Shown piece by piece: positions 18,403 to 31,447 of a stretch of DNA of 64,000 nucleotides. The DNA is from Thermoanaerobaculia bacterium (GTDB taxonomy: Bacteria > Acidobacteriota > Thermoanaerobaculia > Multivoradales > Multivoraceae), in the NCBI GenBank assembly GCA_963664405.1, contig OY761158.1:2688001-2752000 (forward strand). Reading direction: 5' to 3'. Position numbers and translations under genes: made by a program. How positions within the stretch are numbered: the first letter of the stretch is position 1; the number at the start of each line of letters is the position of its first letter. The notes under the pieces were generated by a model. The model saw only the letters and a program-made list of their open reading frames with translations, did no database searches and was not told the origin of the DNA.

Positions 18403-18478
18403 GCCCAGGTAGCTCAGTCGGTAGAGCACGTGACTGAAAATCACGGTGTCGGTGGTTCGATTCCGCCCCTGGGCACCA
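18403..18478 (+). tRNA. tRNA-Phe (anticodon GAA)
   Basis: GCCCAGG...CCTGGGC-A-CCA; anticodon arm CGTGA-CTGAAAA-TCACG. Confidence 0.97.
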
Positions 18479-18616: not shown

Positions 18617-18930
18617 GCAAGATCGGCCGTAGCGAGTTCCTTCTGCTCTCGAACCGGGTTCGGACCGGCACGCTCCAAGGATTCGAGGAGGTGCTGGGGA
18701 GCGTCGGTCGGGACGAGGTGGACGCCCCGAAGGCTCCGGCGAGCGTCGACTCCCACTCGTCTCAGCGGTCCTCGGACCGGTACGCGCCACGCCCCCGCTC
18801 ACGGAAAGTCGTCCACCAGGATCTCTTCAAACCCGGCACGGAAACCTCGACAGGGATCCCTGTCCCTACCAGAAACTCCATCCGCGCAGCAGTTTCGGAC
18901 GTCACACTTGCCAGGAGTATCCTTGGTGTG

Positions 18931-19706
18931 ATGATTCGTCTTCTAGGAGTATTGCTTCGCTCAGTAGTGGCGGCACTCCAGACTCGCCGCCAGCTCGCCC
19001 TCGAAAACCTGGCTCTTCGGCAGCAGCTCTCAGTGCTTCTGTCGGCGCGGCGGCCGTCTTTGACCAACCTCGATCGGGTCTTCTGGACCATTCTCCGGCG
19101 CCGATGGAGTCATTGGACGCACGCGCTCGTGATCGTGCAGCCCGAGACCGTCGTCCGCTGGCACCGGCAGGGATTCAGGCTGTACTGGCGATGGAAGAGC
19201 CGAAATGGCAGCGCTGGACGGCCGAAGATAGACCCGGAGGCCCGAGCCTTGGTTAGAAGGATGAGCTTGGCCAACCCGTTCTGGGGCGCACCGAGGATTC
19301 ATGGCGAGCTCCTCAAGCTAGGGATCGAGATCTCGGAGACGACGGTCGCCAAGTACATGCCGAGGTCGCGCCGGCCACCCTCTCAGTCCTGGCGAGCATT
19401 TCTGGACAACCATCTCAAGGATCTGGTCTCAATCGACTTCTTCACGATCCCCTCGGCGACATTCCACGTCCTTTTCGTCCTCATCGTCCTCCGCCACGAC
19501 CGCCGGCGCATCCTTCACTTCAACGTTACCGAGCATCCCACCGCGGAGTGGACCGCCCAGCAGATGGTTGAAGCGTTTCCTTGGGACACAGCACCGCGCT
19601 ATCTCCTCCACGATCGCGATGCGGTTTTCGGAAACAACTTCCGGTCGCGTGTGGCTGGGCTCGGAATGGCCGAGGTGCTCATAGCACCACGATCGCCTTG
19701 GCAGAA
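18931..19706 (+). pseudogene. rve-type DDE transposase, 5' part (to ...PRSPWQ)
   Basis: LENLALRQQL, VQPETVVRWHR, WGAPRIHGELLKLG, SIDFF and LHDRD motifs; joins 23062-23311 to give a 341-aa ORF. Confidence 0.9.
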
Positions 19707-19709
19707 GGG

Positions 19710-21803
19710 CTACGCTTCACACTGCACCTCCTCCGTAGGGTTCGGTTCGACGTCGAGGCGGCGCCGTCGTTTCGAGAGTTTTCGGCCCTGCATTTTGACG
19801 GGCGGGTCGTCGCCGGGATGCTCGTAGAGGCACTCGTTCTTGTCGTTGTAGGCATGGGCACGCAGCAGGCCGTGGTTGCGCCATGTCTTCACCGTGTGGG
19901 TCGCGACACCCAGTAGGTCAGCCATCTCTTCGAGGGTAAGCATTCCCCCCTCACGCAGTCGGTCGTACCTCTTCTTGATGTCGTAGTCACGGCGCAGGCG
20001 CCGGACGATGCCGGCGTGAAATCGTTTGCCCTCTCCGGAGAGATGGCCTCTGTCGTTGAGGATGCTCGCAATCTCGGCCTCGGTGTAGTCATCAAGCAGG
20101 GTATCAATCTCGGCAACGACCTGTTTCGAGGTTTGGCGTAACTCCCATGCTGTCGGCGGAATGGGCAGTTTGAGACTTCGTGTCGCGCCACCTCGGAAGC
20201 GGACACCGACAACGATCTCGTCGCCCTTCGTCAAGGTGACGTCCTCGATGAGCAAGCGCACCATGCGCTTGCGCTCGCGTTGAGGCGTCTTCGGGTCGTT
20301 CCACAACCGCGGGAAGTCGGTGGCGAGGGCGAGGATCTCTTCTCGTTGCTGGTCGCCGAGCTGTTGGTGATCTTGCTGGCGGCGCTGCTCGAGCTCCTCC
20401 TGTGCGTCGTGCAGCCCGCGCAGCCTCTCGTTCCACTCGGCCTCGAGGACATCCACCACGAGGCGGTTCCCCGGATCGACCTCCATGAAGCGACGCCGAG
20501 CCAAGTCAGCCTCCTGTCGAGCTCGCTGTACGTGCTGGCGCCGCAGGGAATCGGCCTCGTGGATCCGTGCATCGAGCTCGACCTGGACTTTCAGTGCAAC
20601 CTCCAGAGTCACAGGCGTAACCGTCTCCACAAGCAGCTCTCCGATGGCCCGATCGATGCCCTTGCCCGGGATCGACTGACACTTGGGTGTCGCGGTGTCG
20701 ATGCCCTCGCGCTGGCAGACGTACTCGGGCCACTGAGTGCCCCTGCGCGTGTGATAGCGGACCGTCATCCGATGGCCACAAACGCCGCAGAGGACCAAGC
20801 CCTGCACCAGCGCTGGCCCCTCGCGCGGTGGGCTCTTACGCCGGTCTCGGCCGTGGGCCTGGGCGTTGTCTCGTAGTCGTCTCAGGTTTTCTTCGAATCG
20901 TTCCCAAGGAATGTAACCGGGGTGCGCGTCGAGCAACAGCGCGGTCCACTCCTCCCGCGGAAGCGACTTGACCTCGACGGTGCCGTTGACGCGCTTTTGC
21001 GTGTGAGTGCGACCGAAACAGAAAGCACCTGCGTAGCGGGGATTGTGCAGCACCCTCAGGACGCGCCAGTGGCGCAGCGACTCCCACAGCAGCTCTCCCT
21101 TGTGGGGGCCGAAGCGCGGCCGGCGCGGAAACCGCAAGCCTTGCTCGCGGAAGTGTTTGACCGTCGCCGAGGCCGAGCCCGTACGCTCGAAGGTCTCGAA
21201 CAGGTGCTCGAAGCTCCGTTGGACCTGGCCGTCGGGATCTAACACGACGTTGCCGGCCGGGTCGTAGAGTAGGCCGACGGGTAACGGGGTTTGCAGCGCA
21301 CCTCGGCGCGCCTGATTCAGAATGCCTCCGCGCAGCCGAGCCCGCATCACGTGAAGCTCCGCCTCGCTCATCGTGCCCTTGAGCCCGAGCAGAAGGCGAT
21401 CGTTGAAATCACTCGGGCTGTAGACCCCGTCCTCGTCAAGGATCAGCGTGTCGGTCAGCGCGCAGATCTCCAGCAGTCGATGCCAGTCCGTGCTATTGCG
21501 TGCCAGGCGCGAAACCTCCAGCCCGAGAACGATCCCGGCTCGGCCCATACCGACCTCGCCGACGAGCTTCTGAAAGCCCTCGCGGTCGACGCTGGAGGCT
21601 GCGGACTTACCCAGGTCCGAGTCGATCACGAGGACTCGCTCGATGGGCCATCCCATCGCCACCGCGCGCTCTCGCAACGCGTACTGCCGTCTCGTGCTCT
21701 CCGTATTCTCGAACACCTGGCGCACGGTCGACTGGCGAACGTACAGGTACGCATCGCGTCGCAGGTGGCTTGGGGTCACCTTCTGGTGGGCGCTTGCGCT
21801 CAT
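19710..21803 (-). CDS. Large serine recombinase (resolvase + recombinase + zinc ribbon + coiled coil + C-terminal HTH); resembles Rhizobium NGR234 Y4bA/Y4pH
   Basis: YLYVRQST, DLGKSA..DREGF, EVSRLARN, LHNPRYAG, HPGYI and CGVCG..M motifs. The Y4bA likeness is from recall. Confidence 0.93.
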   Translation of the reverse strand: MSASAHQKVTPSHLRRDAYLYVRQSTVRQVFENTESTRRQYALRERAVAMGWPIERVLVIDSDLGKSAASSVDREGFQKLVGEVGMGRAGIVLGLEVSRLARNSTDWHRLLEICALTDTLILDEDGVYSPSDFNDRLLLGLKGTMSEAELHVMRARLRGGILNQARRGALQTPLPVGLLYDPAGNVVLDPDGQVQRSFEHLFETFERTGSASATVKHFREQGLRFPRRPRFGPHKGELLWESLRHWRVLRVLHNPRYAGAFCFGRTHTQKRVNGTVEVKSLPREEWTALLLDAHPGYIPWERFEENLRRLRDNAQAHGRDRRKSPPREGPALVQGLVLCGVCGHRMTVRYHTRRGTQWPEYVCQREGIDTATPKCQSIPGKGIDRAIGELLVETVTPVTLEVALKVQVELDARIHEADSLRRQHVQRARQEADLARRRFMEVDPGNRLVVDVLEAEWNERLRGLHDAQEELEQRRQQDHQQLGDQQREEILALATDFPRLWNDPKTPQRERKRMVRLLIEDVTLTKGDEIVVGVRFRGGATRSLKLPIPPTAWELRQTSKQVVAEIDTLLDDYTEAEIASILNDRGHLSGEGKRFHAGIVRRLRRDYDIKKRYDRLREGGMLTLEEMADLLGVATHTVKTWRNHGLLRAHAYNDKNECLYEHPGDDPPVKMQGRKLSKRRRRLDVEPNPTEEVQCEA

Positions 21804-22087
21804 GCGTGGTTCTCCCGTACATGGCCGAGAGCCATCGCAGCCAACACGTTGATCAGATCCGCGCTCGTATCGTGAGGCAGCGCGGACGGCCTGGCTATCT
21901 CGGCGGACGGTGCCTGCGTCGGCGCGGGCATCTTGGACCCCTGTTCAACCCAAGCGGCCAGCCCTTGTCGCAGGAGAACGGCCAAGCCGAACCGAACCGA
22001 TAGGAGCTGCCGCTTCGCCGCATGTCCTCGGAGCTCCTCGTAGCGAGCGACATGGGCCGGAGCGTTCTGCTGGGGTGTCGCGCTCAT
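21800..22087 (-). CDS. Small accessory protein of the recombinase element (95 aa)
   Basis: ATGA overlaps with both neighbours; RYEELR...GLAVLLRQGLAAW. Confidence 0.8.
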   Translation of the reverse strand: MSATPQQNAPAHVARYEELRGHAAKRQLLSVRFGLAVLLRQGLAAWVEQGSKMPAPTQAPSAEIARPSALPHDTSADLINVLAAMALGHVRENHA

Positions 22088-22551
22088 GGCCGGCGTTTTT
22101 TTTCCTGGCGAGCCAGGGCTCGCTCAATGCTGCGCGGATGGATCGAGATGCCAAAGCGCTTCTGCACCCACTCGGCCAGGGCGGTTGCATCTGCGTCCGG
22201 CTCCCCCTCCAGCCTGTCGTGCAGGGCCTCGACGACCTCCTCGGATAGCTTGTGGGCGCGGCGCGGCCCCGGCTTTCTTGGCAGCAACGCGGGTAGGCCG
22301 CCTTCTTCGTAAACCACCTGGGCGTGGTAGAAGGATGGGCGCGACAACCCGAAGCTTGCCGCGCTCCGGCTCACCGTGTGTCTGTCCACCCGGACACGGC
22401 GCAGCATCTCGTACTTGACCTGCACGAGGTCTCGAGGGTCGAAGAACTCGCTCGAGGTGAACAAATCGTCCGAGACCTTCTCCGGCTGGGGATGAAGGCA
22501 CCCTCGTTGACGGAGGGCCTCGGCTTTCGGGTCGGGTCTGCGTCGCGGCAT
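22084..22551 (-). CDS. HTH protein of the recombinase element (155 aa)
   Basis: FFDPRDLVQVKYEMLR, FGLSRPSFY, GLPALLPRKPGP and HPRSIERAL motifs; RBS GAGGAG before MPRRR. Confidence 0.85.
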   Translation of the reverse strand: MPRRRPDPKAEALRQRGCLHPQPEKVSDDLFTSSEFFDPRDLVQVKYEMLRRVRVDRHTVSRSAASFGLSRPSFYHAQVVYEEGGLPALLPRKPGPRRAHKLSEEVVEALHDRLEGEPDADATALAEWVQKRFGISIHPRSIERALARQEKKRRP

Positions 22552-22766
22552 GATCGTCTCCTCATGGAATGTAATTCTAATTATACCTCTCATGGATCCT
22601 CTGTCAAGGGGTGTCCACCAAGAGAGTACCGATAGATCGTGCATTAAATTGGCCTATCTCTACACTCCTGGTCACACTCCGGCACTCTTCCCGACATAAT
22701 TGTGATTACATTCACGGCATAATCTCCTTTACGCACGGTGCCCCTCAACCGTCCTCACGCAGGTCT

Positions 22767-23059
22767 TCATCGCTCGCTCTCCCGGGTCAGCTTGGCGAGC
22801 TCGAGCAGGTCGGCCAAGCGGTACATCGATCTGCCTGCGGAGATGACAACCACGGGGTCCTCGGCCACCGCACTCGTCCAACGCGCTGGAAGGGAGCGTA
22901 GCTCCTCGCATTCATCCAGGTAGAAGACCCGGTCCTCGCCCCAGCACTGGCGATAGTGAGCCAGCTCGTACTCACGCCCCAACAGCGGGTGGAACGGATG
23001 GGTTACCCGAAAACGTCGTTGCTCACAATCTGTATCGGGTGCATTCGACCATCGAGCCC
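22767..23059 (-). CDS. DUF5372 / Y4bD-like small protein lacking its own start in the integrated state
   Basis: Open frame ...FRVTHPFHPLLGREYEL...WGEDRVFY...LPARWTS extends to the att junction; family assigned from recall. Confidence 0.75.
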
Positions 23060-23061
23060 AA

Positions 23062-23311
23062 TCCCTATGCTGAGCGCGTCATCGGCTCCATGCGGCGAGA
23101 ATGTCTCGATCACGTTATCGTGCTGAACGAGGCCCATCTCCGCCGGATTCTGCGTTCCTTCGTCACCTACTACCATCGCTCAAGAACCCATCTCTCCTTA
23201 GACAAGGATGCTCCTGAGGCACGAGAGGTGCAGGCTCCGAGGATGGGACGCGTGGTGGAGTTGCCCGAGGTCGGTGGGCTCCATCACCGGTACGAACGCC
23301 GGGCGGCGTAG
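23062..23311 (+). pseudogene. rve-type DDE transposase, 3' part
   Basis: PYAERVIGSMRRECLDH...YYHRSRTHLSLDKD...GGLHHRYERRAA. Confidence 0.9.
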
Positions 23312-23599
23312 TCATCCAGCGGGGTTTTCAGAGCCGTCGGGAATCTTGCTGCGTGTTCCGCTGCTACTCGGGAGGCGTGCTCTCGCACGTCGTCCCGTTA
23401 TTCGATTGCTGAGCCTCCACGCCGTTCACCCTGAACCTGCAGGCCCCGGAGAAAGTGCTGCCATCGTGTGCAAGATCCGGTGCGCCAAACGCCCGGACGG
23501 GTTTCTTGGTAGGCACACGTCGACCTCACTCACCGCGGCGCGACCTCCTGCTGATCTCTCTGTTCGCCGAGCCCCGAACCACGCAACACGGCGCAGAAG

Positions 23600-24061
23600 T
23601 TCACCTTCGCCCGCTTGGCAAGCGCGATACGATCGGTTGACCCGAAAAGGAAATCCCTATCCCTTTCCAAAAGAAGCGTATGGCTCTCGCCGATTGCGCC
23701 GGGACTGCACCAGAATGTCGATCGCATCGCCGTCGTCATCGACAGCCCGCCACAGATACTGCCGCCGCCCCTGGATCTTCGCGAAGACCTCGTCCAGATA
23801 CCAAAAGTCGCCCATGCCGCCGCGGCGGCCCCGCAACGGCCGAGCGTAGTCGATTCCGAACATCACACACCATGGCCGAATCGCCTCCTACGTCACCGTG
23901 ATATACCGTTCTGCGAGGTCTCGGAAGCTGAGACCGAAACGGTGATAGAGCCAGACGGCGTCACGGATGATTTCAGGGGGAAACCGGTATCCAAACGATA
24001 GCTGGGTGGTGGGTTCGCCATCGACGTACTCTGCCAGCCACGGCCTCAACTTGCCAGCGCC
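23600..24061 (-). pseudogene. Degenerate IS6-family element (frameshifted and truncated transposase, one TIR)
   Basis: GYRFPPEII.DAVWLYHRF, WYLDEVF..IQGRRQYLWRAVD fragments; TIR AACTTGCCAGCGCC at 24048-24061; left limit approximate. Confidence 0.85.
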
Positions 24062-24090
24062 GCTGCTGGCCAACCAACGAGACGGCACAA

Positions 24091-24597
24091 GTGGAGACAC
24101 TACCTTTGACTAACTCACTCGAATCCAGCATCGGAGCTCGCGGCTTTCATTTTGTTGCTTTGTGTTTCTGTCTAATTTTTCCCGCTTGTGCGTCGGCGCC
24201 TGTCGAGTGGGTAGACGTACCGCTGGCCGATAATGTCTACTTTGAAGCCAGTCCTGTTTATCAGACGGACCAGGTTGAAATTCCAGTTCCTGCCAATTCG
24301 GATCTCGAATACATGCTGGACATGAAACAAGGTCATTCAGTGTCCTATCAGTGGAGATCCACAGACATCTCGAATCCTGAACTTCTTCTTGCAGAATTTC
24401 ATGGTCACACGGTAAGAGATTCTGAAGAGCCTGGAAATGTCATGTTTTTCAAGCAAGGCCGTGGCGACACGTCAGATGGCTATCTGGTCGCGCCTTTTGA
24501 CGGTGTACATGGCTGGTATTTTTCGAACGAAACGGACACTGATATCCATATCGCTCTTTCACTGTCTGGTTTCTACACAATACCTGACCCTGAATAA
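24091..24597 (+). CDS. Putative lipoprotein (LEY...EFHGH...APFDGVHGWY family), AT-richer than flanks
   Basis: Hydrophobic leader ending FPAC; visibly lower GC; lies between IS6 ends. Confidence 0.6.
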   Translation: METLPLTNSLESSIGARGFHFVALCFCLIFPACASAPVEWVDVPLADNVYFEASPVYQTDQVEIPVPANSDLEYMLDMKQGHSVSYQWRSTDISNPELLLAEFHGHTVRDSEEPGNVMFFKQGRGDTSDGYLVAPFDGVHGWYFSNETDTDIHIALSLSGFYTIPDPE

Positions 24598-25001: not shown

Positions 25002-25805
25002 GGTACTGTCAGGTTGAGCCGATGGGTGGCAGAGTCGGCCCATGAAAAGCAGCACGCCCAGCTACCGCGGTCACCGGTTTCCGCCCGAGATCATCACTCA
25101 CGCAGTCTGGCTCTACCACCGCTTCTGCCTGAGCCTTCGCGACGTCGAGGATCTCTTGGCGGAGCGAGGAATCGTCGTCTCCTACGAGACCATCCGTCAA
25201 TGGTGCCGGAAGTTCGGCACGGAGTACGCCCGCAAGCTGAAGCGGCGAAGCGGCCGACTGGGTGACACCTGGTTCTTGGACGAGCTCTTCGTGACCATCC
25301 AGGGCAAGAGGCAGTACTTGTGGCGTGCCGTCGATCAGGATGGCGACGTCATAGACATCCTCGTGCAGCCACGCCGTGATCGAAAAGCAGCGGAACGCTT
25401 CTTCCGCAAGCTCTTGCAGGGCCAAGGGGCAGAGCCGGTGCTCCTGGTGACCGACAAGTTGAGGAGCTATGGCGCAGCGCACCGGACCACTATGCCCTCT
25501 GTCAGGCACGATACGAGCCAGTACGCCAACAACCGTGCCGAGGTCTCCCATCAGCCGACCCGGCAGCGAGAGCGACAGATGCGCCGCTTCAAGTCGCCCG
25601 GCCAGGCGCAGCGATTCCTCTCCGCTCACGCAGTCATCCAGAATCTGTTCCGGGTTGGGCGGCACCTCGTCAGCTCAGCCAACTACCGGACGCTGCGAGA
25701 TCGCTCCTTCGGCGTTTGGCGACAGGAGACGTGCGTCTGCTGAACTCGGAATCAAGGCCCGTCCGCGGCACAAGCTCGCACCGGCAGGATTAACTTGACA
25801 GTGCC
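25002..25805 (+). mobile_element. Intact IS6-family element
   Basis: TIRs GGTACTGTCAGGTT and AACTTGACAGTGCC. Confidence 0.93.
25042..25743 (+). CDS. IS6-family transposase (233 aa)
   Basis: HRFPPEII, WFLDE, YLWRAVDQDG, VTDKLRSY and NNRAEVSHQPTR motifs. Confidence 0.95.
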   Translation: MKSSTPSYRGHRFPPEIITHAVWLYHRFCLSLRDVEDLLAERGIVVSYETIRQWCRKFGTEYARKLKRRSGRLGDTWFLDELFVTIQGKRQYLWRAVDQDGDVIDILVQPRRDRKAAERFFRKLLQGQGAEPVLLVTDKLRSYGAAHRTTMPSVRHDTSQYANNRAEVSHQPTRQRERQMRRFKSPGQAQRFLSAHAVIQNLFRVGRHLVSSANYRTLRDRSFGVWRQETCVC

Positions 25806-29925: not shown

Positions 29926-31447
29926 GTTGGTCGTAGTCCTCGAGGTTGTGCGGTCTCACGGAGAGATCTCGCTGTTGGAGCTCCTGGCTGAGCGGCACCG
30001 GTAAAGCCGGGGGCTGACCGAGGCCGCGCTGGTGCCGTTCGAGTAGGAGCCGGACGGACTGGAATCGCGGTGCGTGGTTCAGGAGCGCTTCGCGCACGGC
30101 TTTGTCGAGTCGCTGGGGGCCGTACTGGCGCAGGAGTCGGAGCAGGCCGGCGGTCTGCGTTCCGAGGTTCTCGCCTCGCTCGGCGAGCTGCTGCATCAGC
30201 TCTTCGCATCGAGGCACAGCGGAAAACAGCCGATGGAAGCCCCGGTGTCGTCGGGCCCTGCGTTTGTGAGCGAGGAGCTCCTCGAGGTGTTGAGGATCGA
30301 GGATCTGCTCGCCCCGGGAGTACGAGCGAGGGTGCTCGGCGAGGAGCTCCTGGCCATCGAGGATCCGCACCCGATGCTCGCTGGCGAGGAGCGTGACGGT
30401 CCTCTGCACATGACTGTGCGGCACCGAGTAGTCGTTGAGGTCGAAGCGCACGATCGGCGTCTTTCTGACCTTGATCTCCAGTCGCAGGTCGGTTTCGAAG
30501 TCGTCTCCGGGAAGCTCAAGCAGTCGAGGTCGTTCCTGGGCCAGGGCGCTTTTCACGGTTCGCTGTCGGTCCTGCGGCCAGGGTCTGCGCTGCGACCTCT
30601 GGCACCATTCCAGGACCTGCCGATTCAGACGATCCAAATCGCTCACCGTTCGGGCGCCGAAGAACGAGCTTCGCAGGAAGCGGATTGCGCGCTCGACGCG
30701 GCCTTTCTCATTTCCCCGAGCCACCGCGGCGACGGTGGGAAGGAAGCCGTAGTGGCTGGCGAAATCGAGCAGCACGGGATGGAAGCGCACCGCGGTTCCC
30801 TGCCGCTCGATCACCGCGGTTCGCAGGTTGTCGTACAGAACGGTCCTGACGACGCCGTCGACGTAGTGGAAGGCCAGCTGGTGAGCGTGCAAGAAGGTTT
30901 CGAGACGAGTGTCGAGGGTGAAGTGCACGAAGACCGTGCGCGAGAACGACAGCACGAAGACGAAGGCATAGAGCCGACGATGTGCCCGGCCGACGCGGAG
31001 CCGACCGAAGTGGCCCCAGTCGACCTGCGCCTGCTCTCCTGGCAGCATGCGCAGCGAGAGAAACGCCTCGCGCTGGGGCTTCGGTCGCATCGAGGCCACC
31101 AGGTGGCGAAACTGATCCGGGCCTCCTGGATAGCCGCGCTCCACCACCATGGTGTAGAGACGGCTCGCCGGCAGTCGTGGGTAGGTCCCGAGCACCTGCT
31201 CGATGAACGGCAGGTAAGGATCGATCATCCTCCCTCGTCGCTGCTGGGGTAGCACGCCGGACTTCTCCAGCGCCCGGCGCACGGTTGAGGGGTGCAGCTG
31301 TAGCTGTCGAGCGATCGTGCCGACTTTCCACTTCTCGACCAGGAACAGACGACGGATCTCCCCGCGCAGCTGTGCGTCGATCACGCCCCTATCTCCGTCG
31401 GCAACGACGAAAGCTCGTTCGCACAAACTCTCGGCAGGCCTCTCCAC
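29876..31447 (-). CDS. istA: IS21 transposase IstA
   Basis: PGEQAQVDWG, LYDNLRT, EKGRVER and NDYSVP motifs. The true start may be slightly downstream (GTG of VIDAQLR). Confidence 0.95.
   Translation of the reverse strand: MERPAESLCERAFVVADGDRGVIDAQLRGEIRRLFLVEKWKVGTIARQLQLHPSTVRRALEKSGVLPQQRRGRMIDPYLPFIEQVLGTYPRLPASRLYTMVVERGYPGGPDQFRHLVASMRPKPQREAFLSLRMLPGEQAQVDWGHFGRLRVGRAHRRLYAFVFVLSFSRTVFVHFTLDTRLETFLHAHQLAFHYVDGVVRTVLYDNLRTAVIERQGTAVRFHPVLLDFASHYGFLPTVAAVARGNEKGRVERAIRFLRSSFFGARTVSDLDRLNRQVLEWCQRSQRRPWPQDRQRTVKSALAQERPRLLELPGDDFETDLRLEIKVRKTPIVRFDLNDYSVPHSHVQRTVTLLASEHRVRILDGQELLAEHPRSYSRGEQILDPQHLEELLAHKRRARRHRGFHRLFSAVPRCEELMQQLAERGENLGTQTAGLLRLLRQYGPQRLDKAVREALLNHAPRFQSVRLLLERHQRGLGQPPALPVPLSQELQQRDLSVRPHNLEDYDQLGGNDDGPTQEESNDP

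Follow-up and report, generated by a model that had tools for sequence, protein, structure and literature searches.

The genome of a Thermoanaerobaculia bacterium (assembly GCA_963664405.1, contig OY761158.1) has a transposase gene that is split, within a single codon, by a segment of DNA encoding a large serine recombinase (LSR), which raises the question of what this segment is and what determines its position. The stretch analysed here, hereafter the window, comprises 64,000 nucleotides (positions 2,688,001 to 2,752,000 of the forward strand of the contig), and positions are counted from its first letter. The segment carries the LSR gene and three small genes, for a helix-turn-helix (HTH) protein, a product of 95 residues (ORF95) and a DUF5372 protein. 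It is very probably a small autonomous integrative element that is moved by its LSR and parasitizes genes for DDE transposases at the motif [N/K]xxxE.

The attL junction reads ...CGATCGCCTTGGCAG-AA-GGGCT-N11-TGCACC and the attR junction reads GGTGCA-N11-AGCCC-AA-TCCCTATGCTGAGCG, so that AA is the sole sequence common to both, and a target duplication is absent. The left flank translates as ...APRSPWQ and the right flank as NPYAERVIGS... (NPYAERVIGSMRREC...); the interrupted codon is that of the Asn in PWQ-N-PYAER, four codons ahead of the catalytic Glu of the transposase. A preliminary description of this DNA, made from its letters, had placed the insertion in the Asn codon of SPWQNPYAER, just before the catalytic Glu of an rve transposase, with a shared core of AA and no target duplication, and the two junctions and the flank translations agree with it on each of these points. 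It had also described attP as a dyad with outer and inner arms. In related elements, compared over 43 distinct end pairs, the dyad is conserved at the outer GGTGCA(G/T)T and at a core-proximal CC, and only partially at the inner AGCCC/GGGCT. The opposite strand of the arm at the LSR end encodes the C-terminus of the LSR (...EVQCEA) and its stop codon.

A second, uninterrupted copy of the host insertion sequence (IS), 99% identical to the interrupted one, is present in the same genome; it reads CGATCGCCTTGGCAG-AA-TCCCTATGCTGAGCG and encodes ...SPWQNPYAER.... The attB that had been rebuilt on paper is therefore a real sequence, found letter for letter in this paralogue, which is also the empty-site allele that the preliminary description proposed to look for. 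Occupied sites have an AA at both junctions, whereas the AA is single in empty sites, as seen in two IS families. Alignment with the intact paralogue indicates that the host IS spans about 18854 to 23520, the similarity stopping 459 nt past the core. The conserved motif of a multi-copy IS that had been named as the target is confirmed as to the motif, "multi-copy" being a modest description of a host IS with only two close copies in this genome.

In this genome, a single contig of 6.78 Mb, the element occurs five times, in copies that are 98.7-100% identical and are all flanked by AA, and at each of the five the AA lies 10 nt before a GAG. With a slash marking the point of insertion, the copy in the window is at PWQ/NPYAER of an rve_3-type transposase, two copies are at PRT/NGKAERF of transposases that are IS481-like by their motif, one is at GNE/KGRVERAIRF of an IS21 transposase (NCBIfam, 1.9e-52), and one (copy 3) has IS3 on its left flank (CWD/, 1.8e-72) and IS21 on its right. 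At least four IS families (IS481-like, IS21, IS3 and rve_3-type) are thus used by one near-identical element, and the notion that a single IS is targeted, which was right about the motif, proved too narrow. An assembly artefact was considered and rejected, given five copies within a closed contig and the recurrence of the junctions in the contigs of independent runs (loose ends at 23061 and 19705). A group II intron or an IS with inverted repeats was rejected as well, the element holding neither a reverse transcriptase (RT) gene nor a DDE gene, and an Rfam search of 19500-23300 with E up to 1 gave zero matches and hence no sign of a guide RNA.

The choice of site is shared by the wider family of elements. 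Relatives of the LSR with E below 1e-20 number at least 8000, many of them on contigs no longer than the element itself (about 3.3-4 kb), and in one-genome-per-species contigs 562 of 595 pattern matches encode a relative. The best 80 loci, from about 60 genomes among those contigs, were surveyed together with the five copies of this genome (85 insertions), of which 71 were readable, with at least 15 nt of downstream flank. Counting in frame from the AA, [N/K]xxxE is encoded at 66 of the 71 and [N/K]xxxE[R/S] at 64; among unique downstream halves the motif is found in 58 of 63 (N in 36, K in 27). By comparison, of the 467,598 AA dinucleotides in this genome, 4.7% are followed by GAR at +11 to +13. 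The possibility raised beforehand as grounds for abandoning the description, that homologues insert at unrelated sites, was tried on this set and failed to refute it. The five misses are L028 (an E-to-K variant of the same motif), three copies in one Spirochaetia genome, and L065, whose flank is unrelated. None of the 71 readable insertions was recognised as intergenic or as lying in an ordinary dispensable gene. The peptides were obtained by translating the reverse complement of flanks oriented by the LSR, so at each of the 66 motif insertions the LSR gene runs antisense to the transposase. Among 47 upstream flank pieces, 26 match Pfam rve, and the overlapping NCBIfam matches are to IS481 (29), IS3 (17), ISNCY (11), IS21 (7) and IS630 (6). 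With DDE transposases as the flanking genes and a recombinase and three small genes as the whole gene content, the view of the element as a hyper-parasite is supported.

The genomes of the 80 loci include Planctomycetota, Acidobacteriota, Gemmatimonadota, Myxococcota, Spirochaetia, Chloroflexota and Aerophobetes, as well as cultured Polaromonas, Caballeronia, Paraburkholderia and Noviherbaspirillum. Gene order is kept across the family: the LSR and HTH genes are present at 80 of 80 loci, DUF5372 at 75 (the misses being at contig edges) and ORF95 at 50 (by tblastn). The 67 loci with both ends located have elements of 3285-3406 bp, and several contigs start or stop exactly at element ends. Members on plasmids, with 52-62% identity, follow the same rule: plasmid pNGR234a has a four-gene unit at TPQA/KGRVER beside an annotated ISNCY transposase, and a Burkholderia plasmid has a copy at CYD/NAPMESF. 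A homologue occurs in 456 plasmid records, of which 273 are of conjugative plasmids, and none was found in 50,697 phage records. Distribution among relatives is patchy: in 20 relatives searched there was no match above 71% DNA identity (distant versions have 66-71%), and 15 of the 20 had no match at all.

The features of the element and its host IS are listed in Table 1. All four genes lie on one strand, in the order DUF5372, HTH, ORF95, LSR, and the last three are linked by overlaps of stop and start codons. As the preliminary description had it, this is a minimal four-gene element that has neither replication nor transfer genes; no structural, replication or packaging gene is found among the four, and PHROGs matches are limited to the integrase and HTH parts.

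Table 1. Positions of the element, its attachment sites and genes, and the interrupted host IS in the window.
Feature	Position	Strand	Remarks
Whole element	19707..23061	-	3355 bp counting one AA core; five genome copies match end to end, 98.7-100% identity
AA crossover core at attL	19705..19706	+	Asn codon, bases 1 and 2; AA occurs once in the empty paralogue
attP arm, LSR end	19707..19728	+	GGGCT-N11-TGCACC; family consensus GGTGCAGTrTGAAGCgTAgnCC
attP arm, DUF5372 end	23038..23059	+	GGTGCA-N11-AGCCC; family consensus GGTGCAgTtGACngCtnanTCC
AA crossover core at attR	23060..23061	+	Junction sequence
LSR, 697 aa	19710..21803	-	Pfam Resolvase, Recombinase, Zn_ribbon_recom, HTH_17/MerR_1; PHROG integrase phrog_95 2.1e-48
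ORF95, 95 aa	21800..22087	-	Stop overlaps LSR start; no family in Pfam, NCBIfam or PHROGs
HTH protein	22084..22551	-	Pfam HTH_32 4.7e-09, HTH_29, HTH_28; likely start ATG 22551, ORF open to 22644
Sigma-70 consensus promoter	22580..22607	-	TTGACA-16-TATAAT, 12/12 positions; upstream of HTH-ORF95-LSR operon
DUF5372 protein	22767..23006	-	Pfam DUF5372 1.7e-13; genome search 74 bits
Left part of host IS	18854..19704	+	Transposase N-terminal part to ...APRSPWQ; paralogue similarity starts ~18854; Pfam HTH_32; weak NCBIfam IS481/IS3
Right part of host IS	23062..23520	+	Transposase C-terminus (N)PYAERVIGSMRREC...; stop at 23311; Pfam rve_3 2.8e-07; IS end ~23520

The LSR has an N-terminal catalytic domain (PF00239, 2.8e-17, residues 18-169), followed by the Recombinase domain (PF07508, 1e-11), the zinc ribbon (PF13408, 2.2e-07) and a C-terminal HTH_17/MerR_1-like HTH at residues 621-660; a paralogue has a weak Tropomyosin match at residues 401-468, the putative coiled-coil region. 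Identity among 12 LSR sequences is 77-91% over 697 aa, and the invariant residues include Y21-V-R-Q-S25-T, which we take to be the serine recombinase catalytic motif, and C339, C342, C363 and C375. An alignment of 31 sequences shows ORF95 to be conserved at the protein level, and its AlphaFold2 model has two helices (residues 9-52 and 72-94; pLDDT 72.8, with a low pTM of 0.29). The HTH protein resembles the N-terminal DNA-binding part of IS630 and IS481 transposases without the catalytic domain (NCBIfam IS630, 1e-11; IS481, 7.7e-08; covering only profile positions ~2-109), and its homologues align from residue ~24-38 on. The promoter upstream of it is matched at 10 or more of 12 positions in the same intergenic region of 58 of 75 related loci. 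In a 34-sequence alignment DUF5372 has invariant residues H3, H6, P7, W22, R26, T44 and R59; its AlphaFold2 model is a small beta unit with two helices (pLDDT 84.9), and a fold search of the PDB was uninformative, the best E being 0.048 for ribosomal protein chains (TM 0.35-0.44). Within 22982-23061, a 13-codon upstream ORF begins in the att arm, its TAA overlapping the first codon of DUF5372.

The modelled complex of the LSR with DUF5372 scored 0.61 against 0.00 for the best control, a mark that 58 of 80 solved complexes reached, as did 2 of 110 mismatched pairs. At least 88% of contacts are common to the runs, and the pLDDT of the partner is 67 or more. The predicted contacts on the LSR are at residues 338-343 of the zinc ribbon and at 394-414 and 482-541, the segments flanking the putative coiled coil, and on the DUF5372 side mainly in the C-terminal helix. 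This placement on the zinc-ribbon/coiled-coil hinge fits a directionality factor, and DUF5372 is accordingly a candidate LSR-binding directionality cofactor. The recombination directionality factor (RDF) of the SPbeta integrase is similarly a small partner with a binding mode at the zinc-ribbon/coiled-coil hinge like the modelled one (excerpts of PMC11722253), and the score obtained for LSR-DUF5372 may reflect likeness to solved integrase-RDF complexes.

The attB sites have information at AA, G+2, G+8 T+9 C+10, G+11 A+12 R+13, G+15 and T+21 and, upstream, at C-9, C-8, A-5 and G-3, which are the first and second codon positions of conserved residues; relative to genome composition the half-sites hold about 7.3 and 14.5 bits, plus the core. 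A weight matrix trained solely on the sites of other genomes and then run on this genome found 41 empty sites that score 25.9 bits or more, every one in a DDE transposase, and eight IS21-like sites of 17.7-20 bits; the best non-transposase site has 19.1 bits and the occupied sites have 21.8-27.3. This separation means that a degenerate DNA motif could in principle suffice for recognition by the LSR.

In the proposed mechanism, the LSR would recombine its dyad attP, two arms of ~22 bp around AA that would be joined in a circular form of the element, with a degenerate attB consisting of the DNA that encodes [N/K]-x-x-x-E-[R/S] in RNase-H-fold (rve) DDE transposases, and would recognise this degenerate motif through protein-DNA contacts. 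The AA that begins the Asn or Lys codon, 10 nt ahead of the codon for the catalytic Glu, would be the point of strand exchange, and the asymmetric core would fix the orientation, with the LSR gene antisense to the transposase. Integration would split the transposase ahead of its third catalytic residue with no base gained or lost, so that excision would restore the gene exactly. A target that is non-essential, usually repeated and plasmid-borne would serve as both safe harbour and vehicle, which would fit the spread across many phyla. The HTH-ORF95-LSR operon would be driven by the conserved consensus promoter, with DUF5372 probably setting the direction of the reaction as a cofactor bound to the LSR. 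From conservative recombination at a 2-bp core and the modelled LSR-DUF5372 complex, we infer that the inactivation of the IS may be reversible.

Several observations weigh against an autonomous parasite that recognizes its target in this way. Compared between IS families, the attBs of near-identical elements of this genome agree at only 15-21 of 46 positions, and those of a Bryobacterales genome whose copies are 99.97-100% identical agree at 11-17 of 46; to judge by these sequences, such sharing is far looser than that of characterised serine integrases, and the mode of site reading is a puzzle. The weight-matrix argument is itself partly circular, the sites being constrained by the protein motif. 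IS21 has 23 copies in this genome, of which one is occupied, 21 have an identical empty site and one has a variant site, so that integration is rare unless the burst of IS21 was a recent one. One Spirochaetia genome has three copies (L030-L032) at ...AAV/K/RQVWQRDGGRC, a sequence that presumably resembles the start of an HNH motif, with no Pfam match in either flank. Six insertions (own copies 2 and 3, L046, L061, L065 and L076) have flanks from two different genes, for which rearrangement after insertion must be invoked; the sequences suggest deletions or other rearrangements between element copies, and reciprocal hybrids of the mixed-flank copies were not found in this genome. DUF5372 has a conserved N-terminus, VTHPFHP, that starts at 23006 with the codon GTA, ahead of the first canonical start (ATG 22982), the first codon in relatives being GTG, GTC, GTA, ATA, ATC or ATT. 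Lastly, no circular attP junction, from the end of the element back to its start, was found among the contig joints and loose ends listed for the public runs described below.

Certain details of these loci may be recorded here. Own copies 2 and 3 are at 2342092-2345446 and 3059616-3062970 of the genome (G000:C1); the left flank of copy 2 shares 11 nt with the IS481 half-site and has no NCBIfam match, and looks to us like an IS1182-family transposase, and its right flank is IS481-like. The Spirochaetia hosts are three diverged copies of a repeated ORF. One of the empty IS21 copies lies inside the window, at 30405-31004 on the minus strand, with its core at 30705-30706 and an intact GNE-K-GRVER site.

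The looseness of the attBs, and the fact that most high-scoring empty sites are unoccupied, would suit an LSR that has almost no sequence specificity beyond AA and moves like a transposon, the transposase sites being the survivors of selection for harmlessness. Such selection cannot fix one codon, as is seen at 66 of 71 insertions, nor does it account for the lack of recognised insertions in intergenic DNA or ordinary dispensable genes, or for an identical site register and orientation across four IS families, and an indiscriminate LSR is accordingly an improbable explanation. It is about equally improbable that the element is a switch, kept by the host or by the IS to hold transposases off until it is excised. 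The model for this would be the fdxN element with XisF, or skin with SpoIVCA, LSR elements that interrupt genes and restore them by precise excision. The nearest NCBIfam model for the LSR is indeed XisF, the fdxN-element excision recombinase, though far below cut-off (1.7e-20, 73 bits versus 375); conservative recombination would restore the gene; and a candidate RDF is present, according to the complex model. Yet fdxN and skin are single-copy elements, vertically kept, in host developmental genes, whereas this element is multi-copy, horizontally spread and found in selfish genes; the same element is seen in unrelated IS families, phyla and plasmids, and its patchiness among relatives, copy number and own promoter speak for an autonomous mobile element, although such an element could at the same time be a switch.

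The remaining explanation, that IS and element form a composite that is mainly a passenger mobilised in trans by the intact IS, the LSR being largely a relic, is very unlikely: transposition of a passenger cannot yield five copies in different IS families, and the strong conservation of the LSR and its invariant catalytic residues speak against a relic. In its favour are the intact ends of the host IS, the existence of the intact paralogue, and a Terriglobia genome (G001; L047-L050, L052-L054; L102-L108) in which 7 of 7 copies of one IS3-family element are filled and no empty copy was found, so that either the targets there are saturated or an IS::element composite has spread as a unit.

Returning to the autonomous element, information on its activity comes from assembled contigs of public runs, those of four runs having been compared with the window. 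The empty-form joint, which skips 3355 nt, is present in contigs of X1, X4 and X6, and public contigs confirm the junctions of other copies. An 800-nt contig of X4 (depth 9.3) has the empty form, and at the four positions where the window's IS copy and the paralogue differ (19431, 19447, 19492 and 19557) its letters are those of the window. It weakly suggests that another sample holds this same copy with its site empty, although assembly across 148 identical bases could have produced it as a de Bruijn chimera.

Among known systems, the phage and mobile-element LSRs with an RDF (phiC31, Bxb1, SPbeta) are alike in the domain set of Resolvase, Recombinase and zinc ribbon, in the 2-bp core without duplication, and in a dyad attP of ~46-50 bp. 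Each of those enzymes has one specific attB of ~40 bp, whereas the sites here share 11-21 of 46 positions while encoding the same peptide motif; the cargo here is three small genes and no phage genes, and the LSR has an extra C-terminal HTH_17/MerR-like domain. Tn4451 and Tn5397 (with TnpX and TndX) are LSR elements that excise as circles and use many sites with a fixed dinucleotide core. A multi-targeting clade of LSRs, commonly with DUF4368, is described in PMC10083194, in main-text passages that make no mention of transposase genes as targets; its supplementary target-gene Pfam tables might bear on this point. DUF4368, common in that TndX/TnpX-like clade, is absent from the LSR here (no Pfam match at E up to 0.01), and that clade targets short DNA motifs not bound to one gene class, unlike the present element, which is bound to the transposase class. 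The IS607 family also consists of serine-recombinase elements without terminal inverted repeats or duplications and with low target specificity (abstracts of PMC4058570 and PMC6188088). Its TnpA is small with an N-terminal DNA-binding domain, in contrast to an LSR of 697 aa in which the catalytic domain is N-terminal and the HTH C-terminal.

Targeting of one mobile element by another has precedents. IS4321 and IS5075 target the inverted repeats of the Tn21 family, and Tn5053 and Tn402 are "res hunters"; like the element described here they prefer a target inside another mobile element, but they do so with DEDD or DDE enzymes and at non-coding ends or at res sites within a single family of elements, rather than with an LSR at a coding catalytic motif in several IS families. 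Inteins and homing endonucleases sit at conserved catalytic motifs, by splicing or by homing at double-strand breaks; the strategy of using the most conserved stretch as an ever-present target is the same, and the mechanism is entirely different. The sr3WO prophages carry an LSR, have no conserved integration site and are flanked by transposases (excerpts of PMC9203015), and may be a related, unrecognised case. No prior description of a transposase-splitting LSR element was found in a search of open-access papers without their supplements.

The element lies in an IS-rich patch. A tRNA-Phe gene (18403-18478) is ~375 bp upstream of the host IS, and just downstream of it are what we take to be an IS6-like transposase gene and a degraded copy (23657-24100 and 25042-25743). 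The interrupted transposase frame (18691-19827) runs 40 codons into the element before a stop, and could, by its sequence, yield a truncated transposase that keeps the DNA-binding region and lacks one of the three catalytic residues.

More distant LSRs also interrupt conserved motifs. This genome has a second LSR, 38% identical to the first and with the same domains including HTH_17, in an element of 2.6 kb that consists of the LSR and a 157-aa ORF (L015 1317-3948; about 3816822-3819453 of G000:C1) and interrupts the IS3 motif DYIEIFY-N-RSRRHSTLGY at the AA of its Asn codon; this is another conserved transposase motif, ~30 residues past the catalytic Glu. Profile comparison of the 157-aa ORF with DUF5372 was not significant (E 0.057, probability about 1%). 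A scan of 401 genomes of the phylum found 21 places with cousin LSRs (37-48% identity to the second LSR), of which 17 were examined and 7 of these 17 left unresolved. Four cousins (L113, L114, L115 and L127, in genomes G261, G171 and G209) split a Walker A motif, GPP/GxGK[TS], with both junctions seen; in three of these the interrupted protein is the IstB of IS21 (Pfam IstB_IS21, profile position 101 of 238), and in the fourth it is another P-loop protein, cut at the same motif, that has no Pfam match. Two further cousins in genome G354 (L131/L118), each with one junction, abut TnpB_IS66 cut at profile position 64 of 101 (...LWVCA/) and RVT_1 cut at 81 of 205, after FFD (...DIRSFFD/); rve is also among the genes that abut cousin LSRs. 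It is conceivable, though doubtful, that this element is one branch of a superfamily of serine-recombinase hyperparasites matched to the codons of catalytic motifs (DDE [N/K]xxxE, the "FYN" of IS3, Walker A GPPGxGK of IstB, TnpB of IS66, and RT just after FFD), which leave behind a dead DNA-binding transposase as a reversible brake on the IS, to be released with the help of DUF5372. If so, the dead transposase could poison sister copies of the IS, and the element would act as a genome defence while riding ISs between genomes.

The niche of this element is the catalytic core of other mobile elements, which adds a trophic level to bacterial mobile DNA. Such elements may explain many "broken" transposase genes, as well as the 3.3-kb contigs that fragment metagenome assemblies. 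A single serine integrase that accepts many attBs, alike in the encoded peptide motif but with little DNA identity, bears on the re-targeting of serine integrases for genome engineering, and natural sets of attP and attB are available here for the study of their site choice. The precise and perhaps reversible inactivation of ISs may influence both the IS load and the stability of genomes, across many phyla as well as on symbiosis plasmids.

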